Assembly (NCBI RefSeq): GCF_000007185.1
Contig: NC_003551.1
Location: forward strand, 690,001 to 722,000
Source: Methanopyrus kandleri AV19
GTDB lineage: Archaea; JAADCQ01; Methanopyri; Methanopyrales; Methanopyraceae
Direction: 5' to 3'
DNA: 32,000 nt
Positions 19,231 to 28,695 of this stretch are shown here, in pieces (the stretch's first letter is position 1; each line of letters opens with the position of its first letter). Both the position numbers and the translations under genes were made by a program. The notes below the pieces were generated by a model that saw only the letters and a program-made list of their open reading frames with translations, was not told where the DNA came from and did no database searches.

Positions 19231-19587
19231 TTGGGTGAGGAGACTGGCGGTGACTATCACGTCGTGCTCGAGGCCGCGTGGATCGTGTACAACGTCGACG
19301 ACGAGGACGACGCTATCAACATCGCCATTGCCGAGGCGGGTAAGCGCTTGAACCGACACGGCCTCGATTACGTGGATATCGATGTCGGGTTTTACGAGTG
19401 TCCTGAATGTGGTAATGAAATCGAAGGTGTGTGGATAGTAGCAGGTACAGCCCTCGTCCGACTGATTCTATCGATGCGAGTGTTCAACGCGGAAAGCGAG
19501 GAACACGCCATTCGCATCGCTAAGTACGAGATCGGTCAAGCGCTGGAGGATGTACCCTTAGGTGTCGTTGAAGTAACTCCGCTCTGA
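19231..19587 (+). CDS. UPF0212/DUF555-family protein (conserved archaeal, unknown function)
   Basis: 118 aa. [14 protein letters not shown]...[12 protein letters not shown]...[28 protein letters not shown] parallels the methanogen UPF0212 family. Confidence 0.75.
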
Positions 19588-19591
19588 CCAT

Positions 19592-20701
19592 TTACTTACC
19601 CCTTACGAGATGCGCCCATATTAGCGCCGAGAGCAACGTGAACGTAGCCAAGGCGAAGGAGTTCATCGCCCTAGAGAACAGGAATACTCCTATCAGTGAT
19701 TGGACTGAGAACGCGATCAGACAACCGAAGAGCATGGCCTCTCTCGCCAGGAATCTCGCCGTCATCCTACGCCTTCGTAGTTTTATGTACTCCGAGAGGC
19801 ACCTCGATCCCACGTATAGTGTGGCCGCGACCCATATGGACAGTAATACCGCCCCGATGTACCCGAAGTCGAAGGCCCAGGTGAACAAGCCAGGCAGCAT
19901 GTAATCGAGAAGGTCCTTTTTAACGACGAGTGCTCCATGTAGTGTAGGTACGTCGAGCCGGAACATCATGAGATATCCGACAGGCAGTGTGACGAACCCG
20001 TCACCGAAGCCCCGCCACTCGTATCCGGCGGGAAGCGCCTTCGTGGAGTGACCGATGATGTGCGTGTTCTTCGCCACGAACTCGAGTCCCGGTACGGTGT
20101 ATTCCGCGAATCGCTTGATACGGAGTGTCGGGCTGAACACGGGCTTATTCAGGACGTAAGCGAGCAGTTCCAGGAGACCGAGGAAACCTATGGCCATCAG
20201 CGTGGCCATCACGATCGACCTTTTGCTCATCTTAGCTGCTCGGGCGGCAAAAGCGCGGAATCTCGACTCCACTTTCAAGTACTTCGCTATGAAATGCTCC
20301 GTAAGCGCCCAGCATAGGAACCAGGAGAGTAGGAAGTCACGATGCATAATTCCTCCGACCATTCCCACGTACACCCATAGGAGATTGAAGTATGGCCGAG
20401 TACGTCGGGCCGCCGTGATACCACGGGTTTCGAGCAGTTGCAGGAGGTACCTCGAGGTCGCCCAAGCGGCGAGTGCCAGTGGGCCGAACGGGTGCGTAAA
20501 CTCGTGGCGTGATACGGGGAGGAACAGCGAGAAAGCGTCCACGGTGAATAGAAGGGCCAGCACTCCCAGTGTGAAGAGGGACAGTGAGAGGACCCTCTGT
20601 ACCGTTACCGAGGAATAGCTCAGGGCGAACGGTATCGTCAGGTGGGTGATCACGAAGAAGTCCAGGAGGGCTTCACCCGTGTTATAGGGGACCACGTACA
20701 A
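19592..20701 (-). CDS. Polytopic membrane protein (about 9-10 TM with one large loop), unknown function; last gene of the wall cluster
   Basis: 369 aa. I count six hydrophobic segments, then a ~90-aa hydrophilic loop (res ~185-275), then three more segments. The TTG start is 1 nt after the upstream stop. Confidence 0.7.
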   Translation of the reverse strand: MYVVPYNTGEALLDFFVITHLTIPFALSYSSVTVQRVLSLSLFTLGVLALLFTVDAFSLFLPVSRHEFTHPFGPLALAAWATSRYLLQLLETRGITAARRTRPYFNLLWVYVGMVGGIMHRDFLLSWFLCWALTEHFIAKYLKVESRFRAFAARAAKMSKRSIVMATLMAIGFLGLLELLAYVLNKPVFSPTLRIKRFAEYTVPGLEFVAKNTHIIGHSTKALPAGYEWRGFGDGFVTLPVGYLMMFRLDVPTLHGALVVKKDLLDYMLPGLFTWAFDFGYIGAVLLSIWVAATLYVGSRCLSEYIKLRRRRMTARFLAREAMLFGCLIAFSVQSLIGVFLFSRAMNSFALATFTLLSALIWAHLVRGK

Positions 20702-20702
20702 G

Positions 20703-21953
20703 TTACCACGCCCGCAGCCTCCGATTTACGAGCTCTCTGATTCCTCCGAGCACGATCAGCGCAACTCCTACGGCGGAGCTGATTAGACCGAGGGAGTGTA
20801 GTGTCTCAGGGGAGATCGGGGTCTTCAACGGCGGCTTTTTGTACCCCTCCGGTAGCGGACGCATGTAGATAGTGATCAGGTTGGCCTCGGGTTCCACTTT
20901 GACATCACCCGGTAGTATGTAGTCGTACCCCAACAGTGTGTTGTTGTCTATGTCGGAGTCGATCGCGCGGGCGATGTCCTCCGGCTGCTTCTTCCCGGCT
21001 TGGACCAGCGTCTGGACGGTCTCGACTATCGACACTTTATCGTACACGCTCTTGATCCCGTAGACCCGGACGATCGGCTGGTCCTTCCTTACCGTGATCA
21101 TGTCTCGGGCAACCTGCCAGGCGTACTCCGTTCGGAGGGAGGACCCACAGACGGGACACCGCGAGTACTTGGAGGCCGCCGGGTAGGCGACGCTCCATCC
21201 ACATTTGGGGCAGACTTTACGGTAGGCTGTGTCCATCGGGATGCCGCGCGCGTTGAGCTTGGGCGGGACGAAAGTGTCACCCGTCGACAGACCGGCGGTG
21301 ATGTTGACTACACCACCTCCGTACTTCTCTCCGGACTTCTTGGCCACGTAACCCATGATCCTCGTCACTATCTCCGTCGCGGGTAGACCGTCCCTGATCA
21401 TCCTGCCGGCCATGATGGCGGCCTCTATTCGGACCTTCGTAGCGGTGCCGTACATAGGGTTGCCCGGCGTGTTACGCAGGTGGATTACGGCGCACTTGAC
21501 GTTCTTGGGTATACGGACGATGTTAGGGCCTCCGCTGCTGTGGTACTGCTTGATGATGATCTTGTTCCCTTTCACGATCACCACGGCGATATCGTAGCTT
21601 CCGCCCACCGCAACGCCCTTCCCGGGGCCTCCGACCAGAAGTCGGTCCGTGGGTGACCGGCTGATACCGGCCCTCACGGCACTTTCTATGTCCTCACCCA
21701 GCTCTAACGCCCGTATACACGCCAGGATAGCCTCCAGGCGTGCCGTACCCTTGCTCAGACCTCCCGCTAGGACGGCTACGTGTAGCTTCTTGGACACTAG
21801 GAACGTCGACTGGAACATGTTAGGAGCGAAGGACATCGAGGCTGCGGCTGCACCGTTGGGATCCTTGCCGCTGGGGTCCGTGATCACGATCATGTTGAAG
21901 GTAGCGGACGCCCCGGAGACCAGTGCCAGGAGCGCGATCAGCGGGATCAGCAC
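20703..21953 (-). CDS. Exported, C-terminally anchored protein with an Ntn-hydrolase/DUF1028-like N-terminal domain and an internal Cys4 ribbon
   Basis: 416 aa. Signal-like N-terminus MLIPLIALLALVSGASA followed by TFNMIVITDPSG...GAAAAS. Compare the DUF1028 start MTFSIVARDPxTGxxGVAVAS. CPKCG-x14-CPVCG at res 248-269. C-terminal TM segment LGLISSAVGVALIVLGGI. Confidence 0.65.
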   Translation of the reverse strand: MLIPLIALLALVSGASATFNMIVITDPSGKDPNGAAAASMSFAPNMFQSTFLVSKKLHVAVLAGGLSKGTARLEAILACIRALELGEDIESAVRAGISRSPTDRLLVGGPGKGVAVGGSYDIAVVIVKGNKIIIKQYHSSGGPNIVRIPKNVKCAVIHLRNTPGNPMYGTATKVRIEAAIMAGRMIRDGLPATEIVTRIMGYVAKKSGEKYGGGVVNITAGLSTGDTFVPPKLNARGIPMDTAYRKVCPKCGWSVAYPAASKYSRCPVCGSSLRTEYAWQVARDMITVRKDQPIVRVYGIKSVYDKVSIVETVQTLVQAGKKQPEDIARAIDSDIDNNTLLGYDYILPGDVKVEPEANLITIYMRPLPEGYKKPPLKTPISPETLHSLGLISSAVGVALIVLGGIRELVNRRLRAW

Positions 21954-21972
21954 ACGGATCGCGGGGTCCCCC

Positions 21973-22422
21973 CTACCTCGGCAGTCCGTAGTCTTCGATC
22001 ACCCGGACCACGACGACCCCTGATCGTTTGATCGTGATCTGGACGGATCGAATGGGTTTGATCTTCGTTCCCGGGATCACGCTCCTCATCGCGTATATCC
22101 TCGCCCTCCTGATCGCCTCGTGCAGCGGGATTTTCTTGCCTTCCGGGGTGATGAGGGTTCCGCCCTTGATAACCGAACCGGGACGCAGGCCCGACGCCAT
22201 CACGTTGCTACGTATGACCTCTTCCGGCAGGAAATCGCAGCCGACTACGTCGATACCTATGATCCTGAGTCCCTCTTGCTTGGGTACCGGACGTGCCGCC
22301 CACGCTGTGTACTCCGCGATTCTTCCGATGCTGAGGAGTAGAGCACCCATCAGCATGATCGCCAGGTTACGCCGGGAAACGGGCCACGGTTTGATCCACT
22401 TCCTCTTCCTTTCCTCTTCCAC
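21973..22422 (-). CDS. N-terminally anchored small protein with a POTRA/FtsQ-like domain
   Basis: 149 aa. Basic N-terminus plus TM segment (LAIMLMGALLLSIG). LRIIGIDVVGCDFLPEEVIRSNV...GLRPGSVI ... IRSVQITIKRSGVVVVRVIEDY follows the beta-alpha-alpha-beta-beta pattern of FtsQ/DivIB POTRA domains. The start is 2 nt after the upstream stop. Confidence 0.55.
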   Translation of the reverse strand: MEEERKRKWIKPWPVSRRNLAIMLMGALLLSIGRIAEYTAWAARPVPKQEGLRIIGIDVVGCDFLPEEVIRSNVMASGLRPGSVIKGGTLITPEGKKIPLHEAIRRARIYAMRSVIPGTKIKPIRSVQITIKRSGVVVVRVIEDYGLPR

Positions 22423-22424
22423 CG

Positions 22425-23855
22425 CTAGATCGCCCCCATATCGCGCAGGACCTCTCGAGCAGGTTCCATTCCTTGGGCTCCTCCCAGTAGAATCACGGTG
22501 TCGTCGTCCGCCAAGTCCAGTGCGCGCTCCAAAGCGTCTTCTAACCGATCGTAGTGCTCGTAGTCGATGCCGGAGCGCTCCAGTTCCTCCAGGAACGCCC
22601 TCCGCTCCTCAGGCCGCACTACGTTAGCATCGTCCACGAGGCCCTCTGATGAGGTCGCGATCACGTGGACGTGGATTCCCTCGTCCTGTAGATCCTTCGC
22701 GCCTTCAGCCAGCGCCCGAGCGATTTGACGGTTAATGTCGACGCCACGCGACCCGCGGATCGCGAACACAACAATCACCTTGGAGCGACCCAACCGTCGC
22801 AGGGCGCGAACAGTGGCGAGTACTCCGTCGGGATTGTGGCAGAAATCGTCGTAAATCAGCGGGTCGTCGCACAGGCGTTCGAACCTCCGCTTCAAGGGTT
22901 GGTACGTCCTCAAGCCTTCGGCGATATCCTCCCGATCTATTCCTAGAGCTCCCGCGGCGGCTACGGCGGCCAACGCGTTGTACAGGAAGTGGTCCACCGG
23001 TAGGGGGAACTCCCGGACGGGTATTAGGGGTTCTTCGTCCAGTACTATCCACTCCTCCCCGTCGCGTTCCTCAATGTGGGAGTATCCTTCGTCCCATCCG
23101 TACCATACCGTCTCCACACCTTCCCTGGTCATCCGCCGTACGTACCGATCGTCACGGTTGAGCACCGCGATACCTCCCTTTCGTAGGGCCCGCACGACAC
23201 CGTATACAGCGTCAACCATCTCTTCCAGAGAGGAAACCAGGTTCGTGTGGTCCACCCCGACGTTCGTCACGACCGCCAGCTCGCATTTGAGGGCCTTCGC
23301 CATCCGGTAGGCGTGGTCCTCCATTATTCGACCCGTAGGTAAGCCTTGTACCTCAGATACCTCCACGCACAGGTAATCTTCCGGCCGTTCCTCGCGCAAC
23401 TCCATCGCGACCACGGGGTCTATGAGGGTGTTCTTCTCGGAACGGAAATCCGTGTTGCAGTAAGCATCGAAGCCGGCGGTATCGAGGATGTGGTGAAGCA
23501 AGTGATTCGTAGTCGACTTACCGTTAGTTCCCGTCACGCAGATCGCGGTAGCGTCAGGGGCGCACTTCTCACGGGCTACGCGCAGAGCGTACTCGTTCGC
23601 CCGATCCACCTCCGTCAGGATCAAGGGGATTCCGAGCTCGTCGCATCTCTCGATCAGCTTGCCGCGCGGGTGTTCAGTCACCAGACATGCCACGCCTCTC
23701 TCCGACGCGATCTCGGCACCTTTATCGTCCAACCACCATCGGATCACTACATCTCCTTCTTTCGCCCTTCCTAACGTGGAGAACCATCCGGCGATCATAC
23801 TATCCGGGTCGCCTGAGCGTATTTCCCCTTCCACATTCTCAGCCAGCTCCCTCAC
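22425..23855 (-). CDS. Mur-ligase-family peptide ligase (MurE/MurF-like architecture), presumed pseudomurein peptide ligase
   Basis: 476 aa. P-loop VTGTNGKSTT. Central-domain VTNVGVDHTN. C-terminal DDFCHNPDG (compare DYAHNP/DxAHTPD). N-terminal domain of the MurE/F type. Confidence 0.85.
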   Translation of the reverse strand: MRELAENVEGEIRSGDPDSMIAGWFSTLGRAKEGDVVIRWWLDDKGAEIASERGVACLVTEHPRGKLIERCDELGIPLILTEVDRANEYALRVAREKCAPDATAICVTGTNGKSTTNHLLHHILDTAGFDAYCNTDFRSEKNTLIDPVVAMELREERPEDYLCVEVSEVQGLPTGRIMEDHAYRMAKALKCELAVVTNVGVDHTNLVSSLEEMVDAVYGVVRALRKGGIAVLNRDDRYVRRMTREGVETVWYGWDEGYSHIEERDGEEWIVLDEEPLIPVREFPLPVDHFLYNALAAVAAAGALGIDREDIAEGLRTYQPLKRRFERLCDDPLIYDDFCHNPDGVLATVRALRRLGRSKVIVVFAIRGSRGVDINRQIARALAEGAKDLQDEGIHVHVIATSSEGLVDDANVVRPEERRAFLEELERSGIDYEHYDRLEDALERALDLADDDTVILLGGAQGMEPAREVLRDMGAI

Positions 23856-23876: not shown

Positions 23877-24947
23877 TCACCCCACGGAGATCCAGAGTGC
23901 CACGGCGGCGAACACCGCTCCGGCGGTCCAATGGAGCGCCACAACCACGGGTTCGGGTAGGTCGTACTTGTACTGGATATGGTGGTGGAGAGGTTCCACA
24001 GCCAACCGGATCACGCCGGCTCGGTGAAGCAAGCTGATGAGCGTGGACAGTACTGGGACTCCTAAGGCGATCATAGCAGGTATCTCGATCTTGTAATATA
24101 GTGCTCCTGCCGCGTAAGCCGCCCCTAAGAAGCAACTCCCCGTGTCTCCCATGAAGATCTTAGCCGGGTATCTGTTATGGAACAGGAAACCCAGGGACGC
24201 TCCGGCAAGTGATGCGAAGAAGGCAGCACCCGGAAGCTGGCCCTGTCCCAGGCATACGCCGGAGCAAGCCAGTGAGGCCAGGAACAGCAGCCCGGCGGCC
24301 AGACCGTCCATCCCGTCGATGAGGTTCACGGCGTTGGTAGCGCCGACAATTCCGAACACCGCGACCGGATAGAAAAGGTACGAGAGGTTCCAAACGCCGA
24401 CCTTGGGTATCCAGAGCCATGTGGCGGGGACGATAGGAAGAACGAAGAGGGCGGCGCCAGTCTGTAGTGCGAGTTTCTCACGTTCACTCAATTCTTTCTT
24501 GATAGGCACCTCACCGACGATCTCGATGGCATCCGGGTCCTCTTCGAGTATCCTCTTCAGATCACGTTTCGCTTTCTCCGTGGCTACACGTGCCTCCTCG
24601 CCCGGTTGTAGTATGAGTCTTCCCAGCTCGATCGGTCGATTCGAGACGTTCCGTACGACCTTCTGGAACTCTTCCACCTGCAATCCGAGCAGGTCGTCCA
24701 CTATTCCTAGCACCATCATGGGGAGCGCTGAAGCTATAGGAGGGAGCGCCTGGATGGAAGCTAGGAGGGGGCCGGACGCCGTTCCCAGTAAGATCCCCAG
24801 ACCTCCCATGATGGGCATGCCGGACTTATGCGCGTGTTCCGTTACGATCGGGCGGTCTACCACGTTAGCTTCCCGCATGTACTTGCGGAGTAATCCAACC
24901 GTTACGGCCGAGGTTACTGTGGAGAGTGTAAACGTCTCGATGATCAT
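23877..24947 (-). CDS. MraY/WecA-family (GT4) polyprenyl-phosphate sugar-1-phosphate transferase
   Basis: 356 aa, multi-TM. Motifs GIVDDLLGL (DD), NAVNLIDGMDGLAAG and FMGDTGSCFLG. GGGGAG precedes the ATG. Confidence 0.85.
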   Translation of the reverse strand: MIIETFTLSTVTSAVTVGLLRKYMREANVVDRPIVTEHAHKSGMPIMGGLGILLGTASGPLLASIQALPPIASALPMMVLGIVDDLLGLQVEEFQKVVRNVSNRPIELGRLILQPGEEARVATEKAKRDLKRILEEDPDAIEIVGEVPIKKELSEREKLALQTGAALFVLPIVPATWLWIPKVGVWNLSYLFYPVAVFGIVGATNAVNLIDGMDGLAAGLLFLASLACSGVCLGQGQLPGAAFFASLAGASLGFLFHNRYPAKIFMGDTGSCFLGAAYAAGALYYKIEIPAMIALGVPVLSTLISLLHRAGVIRLAVEPLHHHIQYKYDLPEPVVVALHWTAGAVFAAVALWISVG

Positions 24948-24963: not shown

Positions 24964-26103
24964 TCATAAGTACTCCTCGATTTCCCTCAGCCTCCGTCGA
25001 TACTCACGTTCGGCCCGCTTCACGTCCGCTCCTGCAGCCTTGAGCGCTGAGCGGAGCCTCGTGAGGGCTTCTTTAAAAGAGTCCCCCCTCACGGTGACAC
25101 GACCACCTACGTCGAAGCGTCCATAGTACTCGTAGAACACGTGGTACACTCCGCCGTCGAACATCTCACGCAGGGGATCCTTGTCCGTAGGGCGCCAAAC
25201 GGGACACTCGATGGCGCACCATAATTTCCTTATCTTCGGTGGCCTCCATCGATCGGCCGCCATATCGACCAGCTCACGGAGCGGCCATATTCCCGTGCAT
25301 CCGGACGTCATGTACCTGGTGCCGCTGGGTCTCGGGTTGAACTCGAGGAACCAGAACTCGTTCTCCCGGACTACCACGTCGAAGTCCACGTTGCCCTCCA
25401 GTCCCAGATGTTCCACGACTCTTACCGCGCACCTTCTTATCTTGCGCTCCACGGACGGGTCGATCGGGGCCGGGCTCATCCGCATACGATCGATCGGATG
25501 ACGACGGTCCGCCGTGGATCCTTTGAACACCGGAACCAGCGGCACCACCTCACCGTCCCAGGATAGAACTTCGATCGAAACTTCCGCACCTTCGATGAAC
25601 TCCTCTACCAGCTTACGTCCCGATACTCTCGGCTTGTGCGTCTCGTGGACCGTGACTCCGAGCCCCGCCTGTGACCGTGGATCCTTCACGACTACCGGTG
25701 GACTGATCGATGGCCTTTCGTTCTCGACGACTTCCCATTCAGGCGTCGGTACGTTCAGTTCTTCGAAGGCGCGTTTCGTTCTCACTTTATCGATCCCGAT
25801 TTCAACGCTCTCGCGATCAGACGCCACAACCCGGATACCTTCGGCTTCCAGCTCTTCTTTCATCTCCCCCACTGCCGGTAGCGGATCGTCTACACCGATG
25901 AGTGGTACTACACCGTCTACGTGCCGCTCGCGGGCGATTCTCGTGGGATGTTCCATACCGCGCGGTACGAAGTGCACCTCATCCGCCAGCTCCCAGTCCC
26001 TGCTCCTCGGGTTCGACTCGGTGAGTATACGGTACACTCCCGTGGAGCCGGCGTACTCCGCCACGTCCCGGAGTAGCCTCGCGCCGACGAAGAGTACCTT
26101 CAC
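24964..26103 (-). CDS. ATP-grasp ligase (carbamoyl-phosphate-synthase-like / Ddl-analogous)
   Basis: 379 aa. Pre-ATP-grasp Rossmann-like N-terminus, then KVRTKRAFEELNVPTPEW, VVVKDPRSQAGLGV, EEFIEGAEVSIEV and FLEFNPRPSG. A GTGA overlap joins it to the upstream Mur ligase. Confidence 0.8.
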   Translation of the reverse strand: MKVLFVGARLLRDVAEYAGSTGVYRILTESNPRSRDWELADEVHFVPRGMEHPTRIARERHVDGVVPLIGVDDPLPAVGEMKEELEAEGIRVVASDRESVEIGIDKVRTKRAFEELNVPTPEWEVVENERPSISPPVVVKDPRSQAGLGVTVHETHKPRVSGRKLVEEFIEGAEVSIEVLSWDGEVVPLVPVFKGSTADRRHPIDRMRMSPAPIDPSVERKIRRCAVRVVEHLGLEGNVDFDVVVRENEFWFLEFNPRPSGTRYMTSGCTGIWPLRELVDMAADRWRPPKIRKLWCAIECPVWRPTDKDPLREMFDGGVYHVFYEYYGRFDVGGRVTVRGDSFKEALTRLRSALKAAGADVKRAEREYRRRLREIEEYL

Positions 26104-27638
26104 CTTTCGTCCCCCAGCACTCGCTCGACTTCTTCAGAGATCTCTTCCCGGTACTTCAGCGGAGCCTCTCCGAACAACACTACCACTTCGCAGTCCGAGC
26201 GGAGCGCCTCCTTGAGACCGTCCAACACCTGCTCCCGAGAGGCACCCAGTGTACCCTTCTTCTCGAACGGCTTGGTGGCGCTCTCCGCTGCGATCACGTT
26301 GTCGGCGTCGACGCGGTCCATGACTTCGTACGCCGCGTACGATGCCACCACCACTAGGTCGGCGAGATCCGCAGCTCTTCTGAGTATCTCTTCGTCTCCT
26401 TCCGGTCCCAGCTCCGAAGCTACGGCGATTACCGCGCAGACGCGCCGCTCCCGGTAAGCCTCCTTCACGCATCTCAACGTCGCGTCCACGCCGGCGGGAT
26501 TATGGCCGTAGTCTAAGATCACGACTCGCTCGCCGTCGTCCCAGAGTACTTCTAACCTGCCCTCGACTCCTTCGAAGGACTGTAGCGCCTCTACCACGTC
26601 CTCCACATCAAGTCCCAAGAACTCGGAGCAGACGGCTATCGCCGCGAGGGCGTTGTAAGCGTTGTGGAGCCCCATCACGGGTAGTCGAACCTCGTACTCC
26701 CCATCGGGACAGATCAGTCGGAACCCGGACAAGTCAACGTCCGTAGCTAGGTAGTCCGGCTCGGGAGATCGCAGGCCACACTCCCGGCACTTGAAGGGAC
26801 CGACCCAAGGGAGGATCTCATGGACTTCAACGTGTCCGCCGCACCAGCACTCTTTTTCCGAGGTATCGAACGGTTCCACGTCCAACCCGTAGTACACGAT
26901 ATCGCCGTTGAAATCCACCACCTCGGGGGCACCAACTACCAACGGGTCTTGAGCGTTCAGCACGGCTAGCTCGATGGTGTCCGGCTCCAACAGTTCGGCC
27001 TCACATCTGGCGTACGTCAGGAAATCGCCCGCCTCGTTCAGATGGTCCGGGGTGATGTTGGTAACGCAGACGCACTCCACCTGGGATAACTCCGCGGCTT
27101 CCAGGATCTCCCCTCTCTTCCCGAAAGTTGCTATCTCTAAGACGCTGACGTCCCCTGGGAGACGCGCCTGAAGTGGGGGGAGTAATCCGACGTTCCCTTG
27201 CATGCCCGGCAAACCGTGGTGCGGGGCCTCGAGCCCGAGTTGCTCGCACACGTGCCTGATCATCGCCACAGTCGTGGTCTTCCCGTTGGTCCCACCGACT
27301 CCGATCACCGGTCGTGTGGGCGGTAACATGTCGAGGAGCTCCTTCACTTCCACGATTTCGCAGCCGTGATCCTCGGCCAGTCGGTACGGCTTAGCATCGC
27401 GTGATAGGCTCGGAGGAGGTACCACAACTTCGGCTCGTTCGAAGATCTCGGGTGGGTGGCCTCCCAATACGAGCTCCACGTTACTGTATTCGAGAAGCGT
27501 CTCGGCGAACTCGCACTCATCCCGGAGATCCGACGCGATCACATCGTATCCGCGCTCCGCGAGGACCCGGGCCGCTAGATTGCATACGGGCCCACAGACC
27601 CCGATCACGAGAACGGTCGACCAGGGAAGTTCGGCCAA
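26100..27638 (-). CDS. Mur-ligase-family enzyme with MurC/D-like Rossmann N-domain and a MurT-type Cys4 ribbon insertion
   Basis: 512 aa. VLVIGVCGPVCNLAARVLAERGYDV (N-domain). GVGGTNGKTTT (P-loop). VTNITPDHLN. LNAQDP followed by ECWCGG-x17-CRECGLRSPEPDY. LDYGHNPAG. Confidence 0.85.
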   Translation of the reverse strand: MAELPWSTVLVIGVCGPVCNLAARVLAERGYDVIASDLRDECEFAETLLEYSNVELVLGGHPPEIFERAEVVVPPPSLSRDAKPYRLAEDHGCEIVEVKELLDMLPPTRPVIGVGGTNGKTTTVAMIRHVCEQLGLEAPHHGLPGMQGNVGLLPPLQARLPGDVSVLEIATFGKRGEILEAAELSQVECVCVTNITPDHLNEAGDFLTYARCEAELLEPDTIELAVLNAQDPLVVGAPEVVDFNGDIVYYGLDVEPFDTSEKECWCGGHVEVHEILPWVGPFKCRECGLRSPEPDYLATDVDLSGFRLICPDGEYEVRLPVMGLHNAYNALAAIAVCSEFLGLDVEDVVEALQSFEGVEGRLEVLWDDGERVVILDYGHNPAGVDATLRCVKEAYRERRVCAVIAVASELGPEGDEEILRRAADLADLVVVASYAAYEVMDRVDADNVIAAESATKPFEKKGTLGASREQVLDGLKEALRSDCEVVVLFGEAPLKYREEISEEVERVLGDER

Positions 27639-27690: not shown

Positions 27691-28695
27691 TCACGGCCGC
27701 GCTCCCGGTATCGTTCGGCCGTACTCGGCCAGTATCGACCTCATGAGCTTTTTAACGTCGCGAAGAAGGCGTTCGGCTTCCTCCCTGTCACCGGTCGCTA
27801 ACCGTACGAACGCTTCGATATCGAGGTGTTCCACCCGGTCGTCGATCTTTCCGTACTCCGACATTACGAAGTACAGTTGCGTGAACCTCTCCCTCCGCTC
27901 GACCCTGTTGAGGGTTCCGCGTACCAGCGACCTCAGGGCTTGACGTGCGTACATGAGCAGCCGGTACGTGAGGTCTCGGATGATTTCATCCTCATCTCTC
28001 GGTCCGTCCGGGATACCGTTTGGGAACGCTGCTTTCTCTTCCAACCCCAAGATATCCAGCACGCGTTCCGGATCCTCCTCTGGGGTCTCCGTCTCCCGGA
28101 GGTACGCTAGGGCCTCTTGAGGTGTTGCCACACCTTCCAGCATGATGGTACATGCGCGACCTGTCAGAGGGTTGTACCCGACCTCCTCTATGAACCTGTG
28201 CACGCCGTACGGACGGATCGGACACGTGTACTCGGGATTGAACCAGCCCAGACTGCTCACGATATCGCGGATGTCTTCCCACGTCCACCGACGGAGTGCC
28301 GGGTACCGGACCACGGTGACTCCTGGAGGGTAGGGGTGGGTAGTGCGTCTCCCGAACTTCCCGCGGAGCTCGTGACCGGTGAGGACTGTTGCGCATCCTA
28401 GTTCACGGGCGCGAAGGCACGCGGCGGTTAGGACGCTTCTACCACACTTCGTACATATCGGGCGTCCTTCCTTCAGAGCCCGCGCGAACCATTCTCGAAG
28501 TCGTAGCTTGACCACCTCGTGATCCACGCCGACGTGTTCCGCGGCTTTCCGGGCGTTCTCTAAACATGTCTTATCGGTGAACTCGTGGACTACTGTTACG
28601 GCTACCTTAACATTCCACCTATCGGCGGCGTCTATCAGCGTGGCTACACTGTCCTTACCGCCGGAAAGTGCTATGCTGGAGGGAGGGCTAGTCAT
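27691..28695 (-). CDS. PP-loop (N-type ATP pyrophosphatase) superfamily enzyme with an uncharacterised C-terminal helical half
   Basis: 334 aa. SGGKDS PP-loop at res 10-15. RPICTKCGRSVL...LGCATVLTGHEL resembles the TilS/TtcA/Ncs6-type core. Res ~190-334 match nothing I recognise. The ATG overlaps the gltX stop by 8 nt (ATGACTAG). Confidence 0.7.
   Translation of the reverse strand: MTSPPSSIALSGGKDSVATLIDAADRWNVKVAVTVVHEFTDKTCLENARKAAEHVGVDHEVVKLRLREWFARALKEGRPICTKCGRSVLTAACLRARELGCATVLTGHELRGKFGRRTTHPYPPGVTVVRYPALRRWTWEDIRDIVSSLGWFNPEYTCPIRPYGVHRFIEEVGYNPLTGRACTIMLEGVATPQEALAYLRETETPEEDPERVLDILGLEEKAAFPNGIPDGPRDEDEIIRDLTYRLLMYARQALRSLVRGTLNRVERRERFTQLYFVMSEYGKIDDRVEHLDIEAFVRLATGDREEAERLLRDVKKLMRSILAEYGRTIPGARP

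Follow-up and report, generated by a model that had tools for sequence, protein, structure and literature searches.

The gene at positions 20703-21953 (minus strand) of a 32,000-nucleotide (nt) window of the Methanopyrus kandleri AV19 genome (contig NC_003551.1, positions 690,001 to 722,000 of the forward strand; all positions below are those of the window) codes for a protein of the operon that makes precursors of pseudomurein. To our knowledge pseudomurein is the only peptidoglycan-like wall in Archaea, and we know of no enzyme for its extracellular steps, polymerisation and cross-linking. Structure prediction has shown that the N-terminal domain of this protein has a four-layer alpha-beta-beta-alpha fold like that of N-terminal nucleophile (Ntn) hydrolases, and that the modelled fold starts at Thr18, the residue that removal of a predicted signal peptide would expose. 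We see even chances that the protein is an exported, C-terminally anchored Thr-Ntn catalyst acting on the pseudomurein peptide; that it is the cross-linking transpeptidase of pseudomurein we regard as a tentative possibility. The initial annotation of the stretch had noticed the exposed Thr and had proposed a transpeptidase of this kind; its observation is confirmed and its interpretation is partly supported.

The open reading frame has a GTG start and codes for 416 amino acids (aa), in a window with G+C content of ~61%. Its parts, from N- to C-terminus, are the following (AF2, AlphaFold2; TM, transmembrane).

21903-21953, minus strand: presequence, residues 1-17, MLIPLIALLALVSGASA, a predicted Sec-type signal peptide ending in A-S-A
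21900-21902, minus strand: codon ACC of Thr18, the predicted first mature residue and candidate N-terminal nucleophile
21240-21902, minus strand: Ntn-hydrolase-like ectodomain, residues 18-238, from AF2 and Foldseek
21123-21224, minus strand: zinc-ribbon-like knuckle pair, residues 244-277 (C248-x2-C251, C266-x2-C269), a weak match to Pfam DZR (E 0.006)
20859-21122, minus strand: C-terminal alpha/beta domain, residues 278-365, from AF2 secondary structure
20739-20795, minus strand: predicted C-terminal TM anchor, residues 387-405, hydropathy 2.15 over 19 residues
20706-20738, minus strand: Arg-rich predicted cytoplasmic tail RELVNRRLRAW, after the TM segment
20703-20705, minus strand: stop codon

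The predicted cut falls between MLIPLIALLALVSGASA and TFNMIVITDPSGKDPNGAAAAS; the signal sequence, the residues following it and the position of the Thr codon are all as the initial annotation had described them. We counted the N-terminal pattern in 118 homologues with an intact N-terminus. Thr at +1 and Asn at +3 were observed in 118/118, while Ala stood at -1 in 116/118 and Pro in 2/118; position -3 was restricted to V, S and A. Presequence length has a median of 25 aa; most homologues have a hydrophobic core of 10-15 residues, and the n-region is net positive in 77/97. As gene callers often cut this gene short at an internal Met, the count was redone on raw DNA of 76 species-representative genomes: Thr at +1 was found in 76/76, Ala at -1 in 76/76 and a hydrophobic presequence in 75/76. 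Thus Thr18, first singled out in one sequence, is invariant among orthologues both in proteins and in genomes. Averaged over alignment columns, identity is 0.49 in the presequence and 0.88 in residues 18-55, where conservation of the protein is strongest; the step falls at A17/T18. Many database entries of the family begin at an internal Met and carry no presequence (e.g. 396-aa and 402-405-aa forms; P0002, P0003, P0028, P0030 and P0031 are among them). A bacterial-type lipoprotein was considered and rejected: the Cys is found at +2, after the Thr, not at +1, and in 15/118 homologues it is replaced by M, L, F or T.

For protein WP_088335890.1 from Methanopyrus KOL6, which shares a 90%-identity cluster with the window protein, and for one other family member, the supplementary SignalP 5 table of Lupo 2025 gives a Sec signal peptidase I (Sec/SPI) call together with one TM segment (PMC11915815). 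From the sequence we infer that cleavage frees Thr18, and this published run supports it. The C-terminal anchor, also proposed in the initial annotation, was borne out by the hydrophobic stretch 387-405, by an AF2 helix (382-415) that includes it, and by the single TM segment of the published TMHMM result for the same-cluster protein. Since the hydrophobic helix precedes the Arg-rich RELVNRRLRAW, the predicted topology is that of type I, which would place the N-terminal bulk outside the membrane.

The GTG start leaves the window presequence with no charged n-region; other Methanopyrus sequences carry Arg-rich n-regions. We also observed an in-frame ATC (21957-21959, minus strand) 9 nt after a G-rich Shine-Dalgarno-like motif and just ahead of the hydrophobic core. 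The ATC and the G-rich motif are present in 5/5 sequences of the Methanopyrus clade (the window, L003, L005, L006 and L007), and L006 has neither ATG nor GTG nor TTG anywhere from the upstream stop codon to the Thr. This ATC, two codons upstream of the GTG, may thus be the true start, a conserved non-canonical one; such a start suggests an M-R n-region for the window presequence.

The fold was predicted from a 43-sequence alignment for the full protein (predicted local distance difference test score, pLDDT, 85; predicted TM-score, pTM, 0.71) and from a 20-sequence alignment for the domain of residues 18-238 (pLDDT 87, pTM 0.88), the first 20 mature residues of which have pLDDT 95. In the models of the domain four strands are followed by two helices, four strands, two helices and one strand, an element order known from single-chain Ntn hydrolases, HslV and proteasome beta subunits among them; Thr18 heads strand beta-1 in both models. 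When the domain model was compared with the PDB by Foldseek, the top matches were eight chains of circularly permuted human Taspase1 (E 1.6e-6 to 2.6e-5, probability 1.00, query-normalised TM-score, TMq, 0.46-0.59), followed by Anbu (E 5.7e-4, probability 1.00) and HslV (E 2e-3, probability 1.00); over the domain and full-length models HslV has a target-normalised TM-score (TMt) of 0.57-0.60. The full-length model also retrieves the DUF1028 structure 2IMH (E 0.016, TMt 0.53), EgtC, bile-salt hydrolase and class-II amidotransferases. The structure comparison that the initial annotation had called for thus gives support to an Ntn fold, with Ntn hydrolases ranked first. Among the matches listed, the Taspase entries are permuted only, with none described as wild type. 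The permuted Taspase1 constructs begin at the nucleophile Thr. That only such Thr-first entries are among the matches listed fits an alignment of Thr18 with the Taspase1 nucleophile and speaks for it indirectly. Several polar and Gly residues in predicted loops of the domain are invariant as well: S39, S41, G64-G65, H158, N161, R187-D188 and E209.

Between the ectodomain and the anchor, the window protein carries two CxxC knuckles, C248-P-K-C251 and C266-P-V-C269. The CPKCG/CPVCG ribbon reported earlier (21147-21212) is therefore present, with a spacing of x13 in place of the x14 given for it. C248 and C266 are invariant, while the second Cys of each knuckle (C251, C269) is exchanged for Asp in many Methanobacteriales: the pattern of the two second positions is CC in 85 sequences, DD in 18 and CD in 16, and DC was never seen. 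Judged from the alignment, a C4 site is not a family-wide feature, and the ribbon fits a structural metal site tolerating Cys or Asp (carboxylate) ligands. With a site of this kind, the ribbon is less surprising in an extracytoplasmic protein than it had seemed at first. The domain that follows had been put at ~130 aa and was found to have ~90-110 aa; it has no Pfam or PDB sequence match. Residues 294-363 (20859-21074, minus strand) are predicted by AF2 to form a strand, two helices and two strands, the element order of a polypeptide-transport-associated (POTRA) unit, for which sequence support was not found.

In a protein search the product was 100% identical to a Methanopyrus kandleri hypothetical protein, and the GenBank label of the AV19 copy is 'Uncharacterized protein conserved in archaea, Zn-ribbon domain containing'. 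It matches NCBIfam NF053642, the Mfer764 family, over residues 17-412 (E 9.3e-172; 571.3 bits vs a curated cutoff of 560). The orthologous group (OG) OG0001472 of Lupo 2025 includes WP_088335890.1, and since this protein shares the 90% cluster of the window protein, the mapping of the window protein to OG0001472 is secure. Subedi 2021 described Mfer763 and Mfer764 as highly conserved transmembrane proteins always located downstream of pMurE and, both of them, without homologues among annotated proteins, Mfer764 being 'Con Pro' of Gene Cluster 2 (PMC10117817); Lupo 2025 entered OG0001472 in cluster A with neither domain nor function (PMC11915815). In the searched literature, then, the family is listed as a conserved unknown and transglutaminases are favoured for cross-linking (PMC10117817; PMC11915815). 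That the gene belongs to a family associated with pseudomurein was already known; new relative to this literature are the assignment of the Ntn-like fold, the invariant Thr at the signal-peptide junction and the catalytic hypothesis.

The gene is the sixth in a tightly packed row on the minus strand, between Mfer763 and a polytopic membrane protein. The other members of the row, in order of transcription, are these.

26100-27638, minus strand: pMurC, by NCBIfam equivalog model
24964-26103, minus strand: Ddl-like ATP-grasp protein, by NCBIfam equivalog model
23877-24947, minus strand: MraY-type transferase, by NCBIfam equivalog model
22425-23855, minus strand: pMurE, by NCBIfam equivalog model
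21973-22422, minus strand: Mfer763-family gene, 149 aa, NCBIfam NF053641, E 1e-50
19592-20701, minus strand: polytopic membrane protein, 369 aa, beginning 1 nt past the stop codon of the Mfer764 gene

The pseudomurein equivalog models matched by pMurE, the MraY-type transferase, the ATP-grasp protein and pMurC are NF053648, NF053644, NF053643 and NF053645. The block of ATP-grasp, MraY, pMurE, Mfer763 and Mfer764 genes is kept in Methanobacteriales and in three other contigs of the Methanopyrus clade, with Mfer763 directly upstream of Mfer764 in every locus examined. We found 223 loci of the Mfer764 family in species-representative genomes. The source genomes are listed for 80 of the 223, and all of these are of Methanobacteriales or Methanopyrales type except one metagenome-assembled genome labelled Methanomicrobiales; the 277 protein matches carrying a source name are likewise of Methanobacteriales or Methanopyrales type. 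Members from the two orders have only ~45% identity overall. The co-occurrence with pseudomurein suggested as a check was thus observed: the gene is restricted to lineages with pseudomurein and lies inside the pseudomurein operon. That its product belongs to the machinery of pseudomurein assembly as a type-I membrane protein is, in our judgment, an evenly balanced proposition.

Mfer763 has an N-terminal TM helix and an ectodomain of ~100 aa. While a Pfam search with it gives nothing, a 19-sequence profile compared with the PDB gave six matches, 6/6 to POTRA domains of BamA/YaeT (best E 2.7e-4), and one of the alignments covers a whole POTRA unit. From these profile matches Mfer763 looks POTRA-like, with an architecture resembling that of FtsQ/DivIB inside a cluster of mur ligases and mraY. 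We found no mention of this likeness in the searched literature.

The following mechanism could be proposed. The Sec signal peptide would be removed after the conserved [V/A/S]-x-A, which would make Thr18 residue 1 of the extracytoplasmic domain. The hydroxyl of Thr18, activated by its own free alpha-amine, would attack an amide or isopeptide bond of a pseudomurein stem peptide in lipid-linked or nascent wall material, and the acyl-enzyme so formed would then react either with an amine on an adjacent stem peptide, giving a cross-link, or with water, so that the peptide is trimmed. These catalytic steps are suggested by analogy with the proteasome and HslV, with Taspase and isoaspartyl peptidases, and with gamma-glutamyl transpeptidase (GGT). 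The metal-binding ribbon and the small alpha/beta domain would form a stalk, and the C-terminal helix would hold the enzyme at the membrane, beside the POTRA-like Mfer763 and, in Methanopyrus, also beside the polytopic membrane protein encoded directly downstream.

A number of observations weigh against an exported Thr-Ntn catalyst or against its role in cross-linking, and they have to be set beside the rival explanations that they favour. Some concern export. In the published SignalP 5 table the entries of M. smithii and M. fervidus are 'OTHER' with one TM segment (PMC11915815), so that the cleavable signal peptide claimed earlier holds for the same-cluster protein (Sec/SPI) and fails in the table for two of the four OG0001472 members; these calls may reflect N-terminally shortened annotations. 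One lineage related to Methanopyrus has V-S-P in front of the Thr and a weakly hydrophobic presequence (L003 6040-6056; P0004, P0102). Pro at -1 is poor for signal peptidase, and in this lineage the Thr may be freed by autoproteolysis instead. One could imagine, then, a cytoplasmic tail-anchored protein whose hydrophobic propeptide is removed autocatalytically, as in proteasome beta subunits. The Pro at -1 and the uncharged n-region of the window's GTG form would agree with such a protein, as would the ribbon, given that zinc ribbons are usually cytoplasmic. Still, most homologues have canonical tripartite signal peptides, the Arg-rich n-regions of other Methanopyrus sequences and the Sec/SPI call point to export, and the Cys-to-Asp swaps of the ribbon fit an extracytoplasmic metal site. 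We consider a cytoplasmic location very unlikely, and just as improbable the function that would go with it, namely that the ribbon and Ntn domain face the cytoplasm and work, close to MraY and pMurE, on precursors linked to nucleotide or lipid.

Other points against the exported catalyst concern the fold. The fold matches are moderate (TM-score 0.4-0.6, root-mean-square deviation, rmsd, 6-7 A), and PP2C phosphatases, another four-layer sandwich, are interleaved among them from E 5.4e-4, ~300-fold weaker than the Ntn matches and with rmsd of 10-14 A. PP2C is also the top match (E 5.4e-3) in a fold search of BFVD, which as a search for a viral analogue gave nothing below E 5e-3. With its invariant acidic residues D26, D31, D188, E209 and D226, the domain could in principle be a PP2C-like metal-dependent phosphatase with an extracellular substrate such as a pyrophosphate-linked lipid carrier or precursor, the Thr being irrelevant. 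Such an activity is highly improbable in our view: apart from the weaker E-values and the larger rmsd, no PP2C family was matched in Pfam at E<=10, the position of the metal-binding 'DG' at a strand end reads S/A-G-G in our own comparison, and a phosphatase would give no reason for the invariance of the Thr where cleavage is predicted. A further candidate relative, the 'NTN-hydrolase' of M. smithii virus MSTV1, was set aside, as it is named in a figure legend alone.

The sequence comparisons also speak against the catalyst, as they give no relatives among enzymes. Twenty domain sequences have no match to any Ntn or PP2C family of Pfam at E<=10; the full protein has weak zinc-ribbon matches alone, with DUF1028 absent at E<=1; a PDB profile search returned nothing relevant. 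A domain profile compared with 1.84 billion representative proteins gave 38 matches and no relatives outside the Mfer764 family: two of the 38 are repeat adhesins matched, many times over, on a G-rich stretch of 37 residues, and thus spurious, the rest being fragments of the family. When the profile was aligned by hhalign with Taspase1, EcAIII, ASRGL1, HslV and proteasome beta, entered as single sequences, all P-values were >=0.005 and the aligned regions were mutually inconsistent; for the Asparaginase_2/Taspase sequences P was 0.015-0.28, again with inconsistent regions.

The kinship with DUF1028 proposed in the initial annotation could not be upheld. PF06267 has no match in 20 members (E<=10), and against a DUF1028 alignment of 117 proteins rebuilt from the 2IMH sequence hhalign gave P=0.14 and a probability of 0.4%. 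By fold, 2IMH is of middle rank for the full-length model (E 0.016) and outside the top 50 for the domain model. We rejected DUF1028 membership; the likeness of the N-terminal motif is visible by eye and statistically unsupported. The same applies to GGT, the second relative considered at that time: PF01019 gave no Pfam match and no Foldseek match in the top 50. Asparaginase_2/Taspase (PF01112) was rejected as well, having no Pfam match, and with the Thr of the window protein preceded by a signal peptide, not an alpha subunit; an apparent match 'SGGLA..PG..G' between the second half and Taspase did not recur with EcAIII or ASRGL1. No internal duplication was detected between the domain halves (hhalign P 0.61). 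The best non-significant hhalign matches, to DUF1028 (P 0.14) and ASRGL1 (P 0.005), overlap in the helix-1/helix-2 region 'LE-G----A', at mature residues 43-88 (~21637-21774, minus strand), roughly co-linear with a Thr1-to-Thr1 register. This shared region is a weak hint at sequence level. The protein is an orphan family with an Ntn-like fold, and not a member of DUF1028 or GGT.

An orphan with no recognisable catalytic motif in common with any Ntn family may have no catalytic activity at all. It could be a pseudo-enzyme with Ntn-like fold, which together with Mfer763 organises a complex for pseudomurein synthesis or division at the outer face; a scaffold of this sort seems to us rather unlikely. 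The idea that the Thr is kept for structural or processing reasons only is similarly doubtful; compare proteasome alpha subunits. It is known that inactive Ntn-fold subunits exist; here the partner has a POTRA-like domain, typical of scaffolds, and high conservation extends over the whole N-terminal block, beyond the Thr alone. What argues against a scaffold is that Thr at +1 and Asn at +3 are absolutely invariant across Methanopyrales and Methanobacteriales, at ~45% identity, and that the many invariant polar and Gly residues in loops are more typical of an active site.

Finally, cross-linking itself has to be weighed against hydrolysis. Most Ntn enzymes are hydrolases, not transferases, a point against a transpeptidase, and the closest folds, Taspase1, HslV and Anbu, are all hydrolases. 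A strictly hydrolytic Thr-Ntn peptidase or amidase could trim stem peptides (e.g. terminal Ala) or open cross-links; we think this improbable, and so too the accompanying division of labour in which the enzyme serves wall growth and cell separation while transglutaminase-like or sortase-like proteins make the cross-links. Transglutaminase chemistry needs a Gln donor and pseudomurein carries Glu, and this disfavours transglutaminases as the cross-linkers. Also, the placement in the precursor operon and the membrane tether resemble ftsI in the bacterial division and cell wall (dcw) cluster, where it likewise lies beside murE and mraY, more than they resemble autolysins. On the other side, exported transglutaminases are the published candidates for cross-linking (PMC10117817; PMC11915815), which counts against the transpeptidase and in favour of hydrolysis. 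A sortase-like OG is found in Table 1 of Lupo 2025, in cluster C, which its authors deem probably unrelated to pseudomurein synthesis (PMC11915815). No PBP-type (penicillin-binding protein) or other transpeptidase has been identified for pseudomurein (PMC10117817; PMC11915815). The Mfer764 gene lies within the precursor-synthesis operon in every lineage examined and its product is predicted to be membrane-tethered, which we take as a tentative argument for the transpeptidase.

The polytopic protein downstream has a large loop at ~residues 185-270 and exceeds the hydropathy threshold in five segments, though the number of helices may be higher. Its family, OG0000796 of Lupo 2025, is specific to pseudomurein methanogens, and it adjoins the Mfer764 gene only in the Methanopyrus clade, not in the Methanobacteriales loci examined. 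Pfam and PDB profile searches with it were empty. An assignment to polymerases of SEDS (shape, elongation, division and sporulation) or Wzy type was not adopted, being backed only by the automatic UniRef label of the M. fervidus orthologue, 'Oligosaccharide repeat unit polymerase'; we regard the protein as a candidate glycan polymerase or flippase.

At the other end of the row, 52 nt upstream of pMurC, there is a gene for a 334-aa protein (27691-28695, minus strand) with a PP-loop ATPase-type N-terminus and weak matches to QueC (E 1e-4) and LarE (E 5e-6). L003 and L005 also have a gene of about this size there, and the PP-loop-type gene may belong to the Methanopyrus version of the cluster. 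In Methanopyrus a DUF555 gene (19231-19587, plus strand) converges on the operon end; in Methanobacteriales the Mfer764 gene is followed by a co-directional DUF356 gene (L001 8321-8668; L002 8309-8743).

An Ntn-type fold together with a Thr exposed by signal peptide removal would provide a concrete active-site hypothesis, open to mutation, and the question of which enzyme builds extracellular pseudomurein becomes directly testable. A Thr nucleophile also suggests a class of inhibitors, those with Thr-directed warheads. As a target the protein would be peculiar to Methanobacteriales and Methanopyrales, among them the methanogens of rumen and gut at which methane-mitigation work is aimed. If the transpeptidase reading were true, cross-linking of walls would have an independent evolutionary origin, based on a third type of nucleophile, and the POTRA-like partner would add to the argument for an organisational ancestry common to the pseudomurein and murein clusters. 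One could speculate that Mfer764 represents a third mechanistic class of wall transpeptidases, after Ser-PBPs and Cys-LD-transpeptidases, in which an N-terminal Thr is unmasked by signal peptidase; we consider this possible and doubtful. With the same caution, such a transpeptidase could form an outer-face complex with the FtsQ-like POTRA protein Mfer763 and the polytopic candidate glycan polymerase. The pseudomurein operon might then conceivably mirror the logic of the bacterial dcw cluster (mur ligases, mraY, transpeptidase, POTRA) with a non-homologous catalytic module, a suggestion we also put forward tentatively.

In comparison with known systems, the window protein differs in nothing from the Mfer764 family (NF053642), of which it is a member with the same synteny after pMurE and Mfer763. 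With DUF1028 it has in common the Ntn fold and a local N-terminal motif, T-F-x-I-x-x-x-D-P-x-x-G...G-x-A-A-A-x-x-S. GGT, unlike the window protein, is an autoprocessed two-chain enzyme; its chemistry is the precedent, as this Thr-Ntn enzyme takes up a gamma-glutamyl group covalently and transfers it to an amine. HslV, Anbu and proteasome beta subunits share with the window protein the single-chain element order and an N-terminal Thr after removal of a leader, the removal being predicted in our case. They are, however, cytoplasmic rings with no sequence similarity to it, and the position that numerically matches Lys33 of the proteasome is an invariant Thr in the Mfer764 family by our own comparison.

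Class B PBPs (FtsI/PBP2) and LD-transpeptidases are functional analogues only, with unrelated folds and Ser or Cys nucleophiles, and no homology to them was detected by Pfam or PDB profile search. Their genes lie in the dcw cluster next to mraY and those of mur ligases. The enzymes are ectoenzymes tethered by a single membrane pass and use the amine of a peptide to resolve their acyl-enzyme; the tether is at the N-terminus, that of the window protein at the C-terminus. The closest likeness in fold is to Taspase1, type-2 asparaginases and isoaspartyl peptidases (TMq up to 0.59), which share with the models of the window protein the four-layer fold and a Thr at the head of strand one. In these enzymes a soluble precursor cleaves itself internally to release the Thr, whereas the Thr of the window protein would be freed by the predicted removal of a signal peptide; unlike them, the window protein also has a ribbon, a further domain and a membrane anchor. 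Enzymes of the Taspase and isoaspartyl peptidase type cut side-chain-linked amide bonds.

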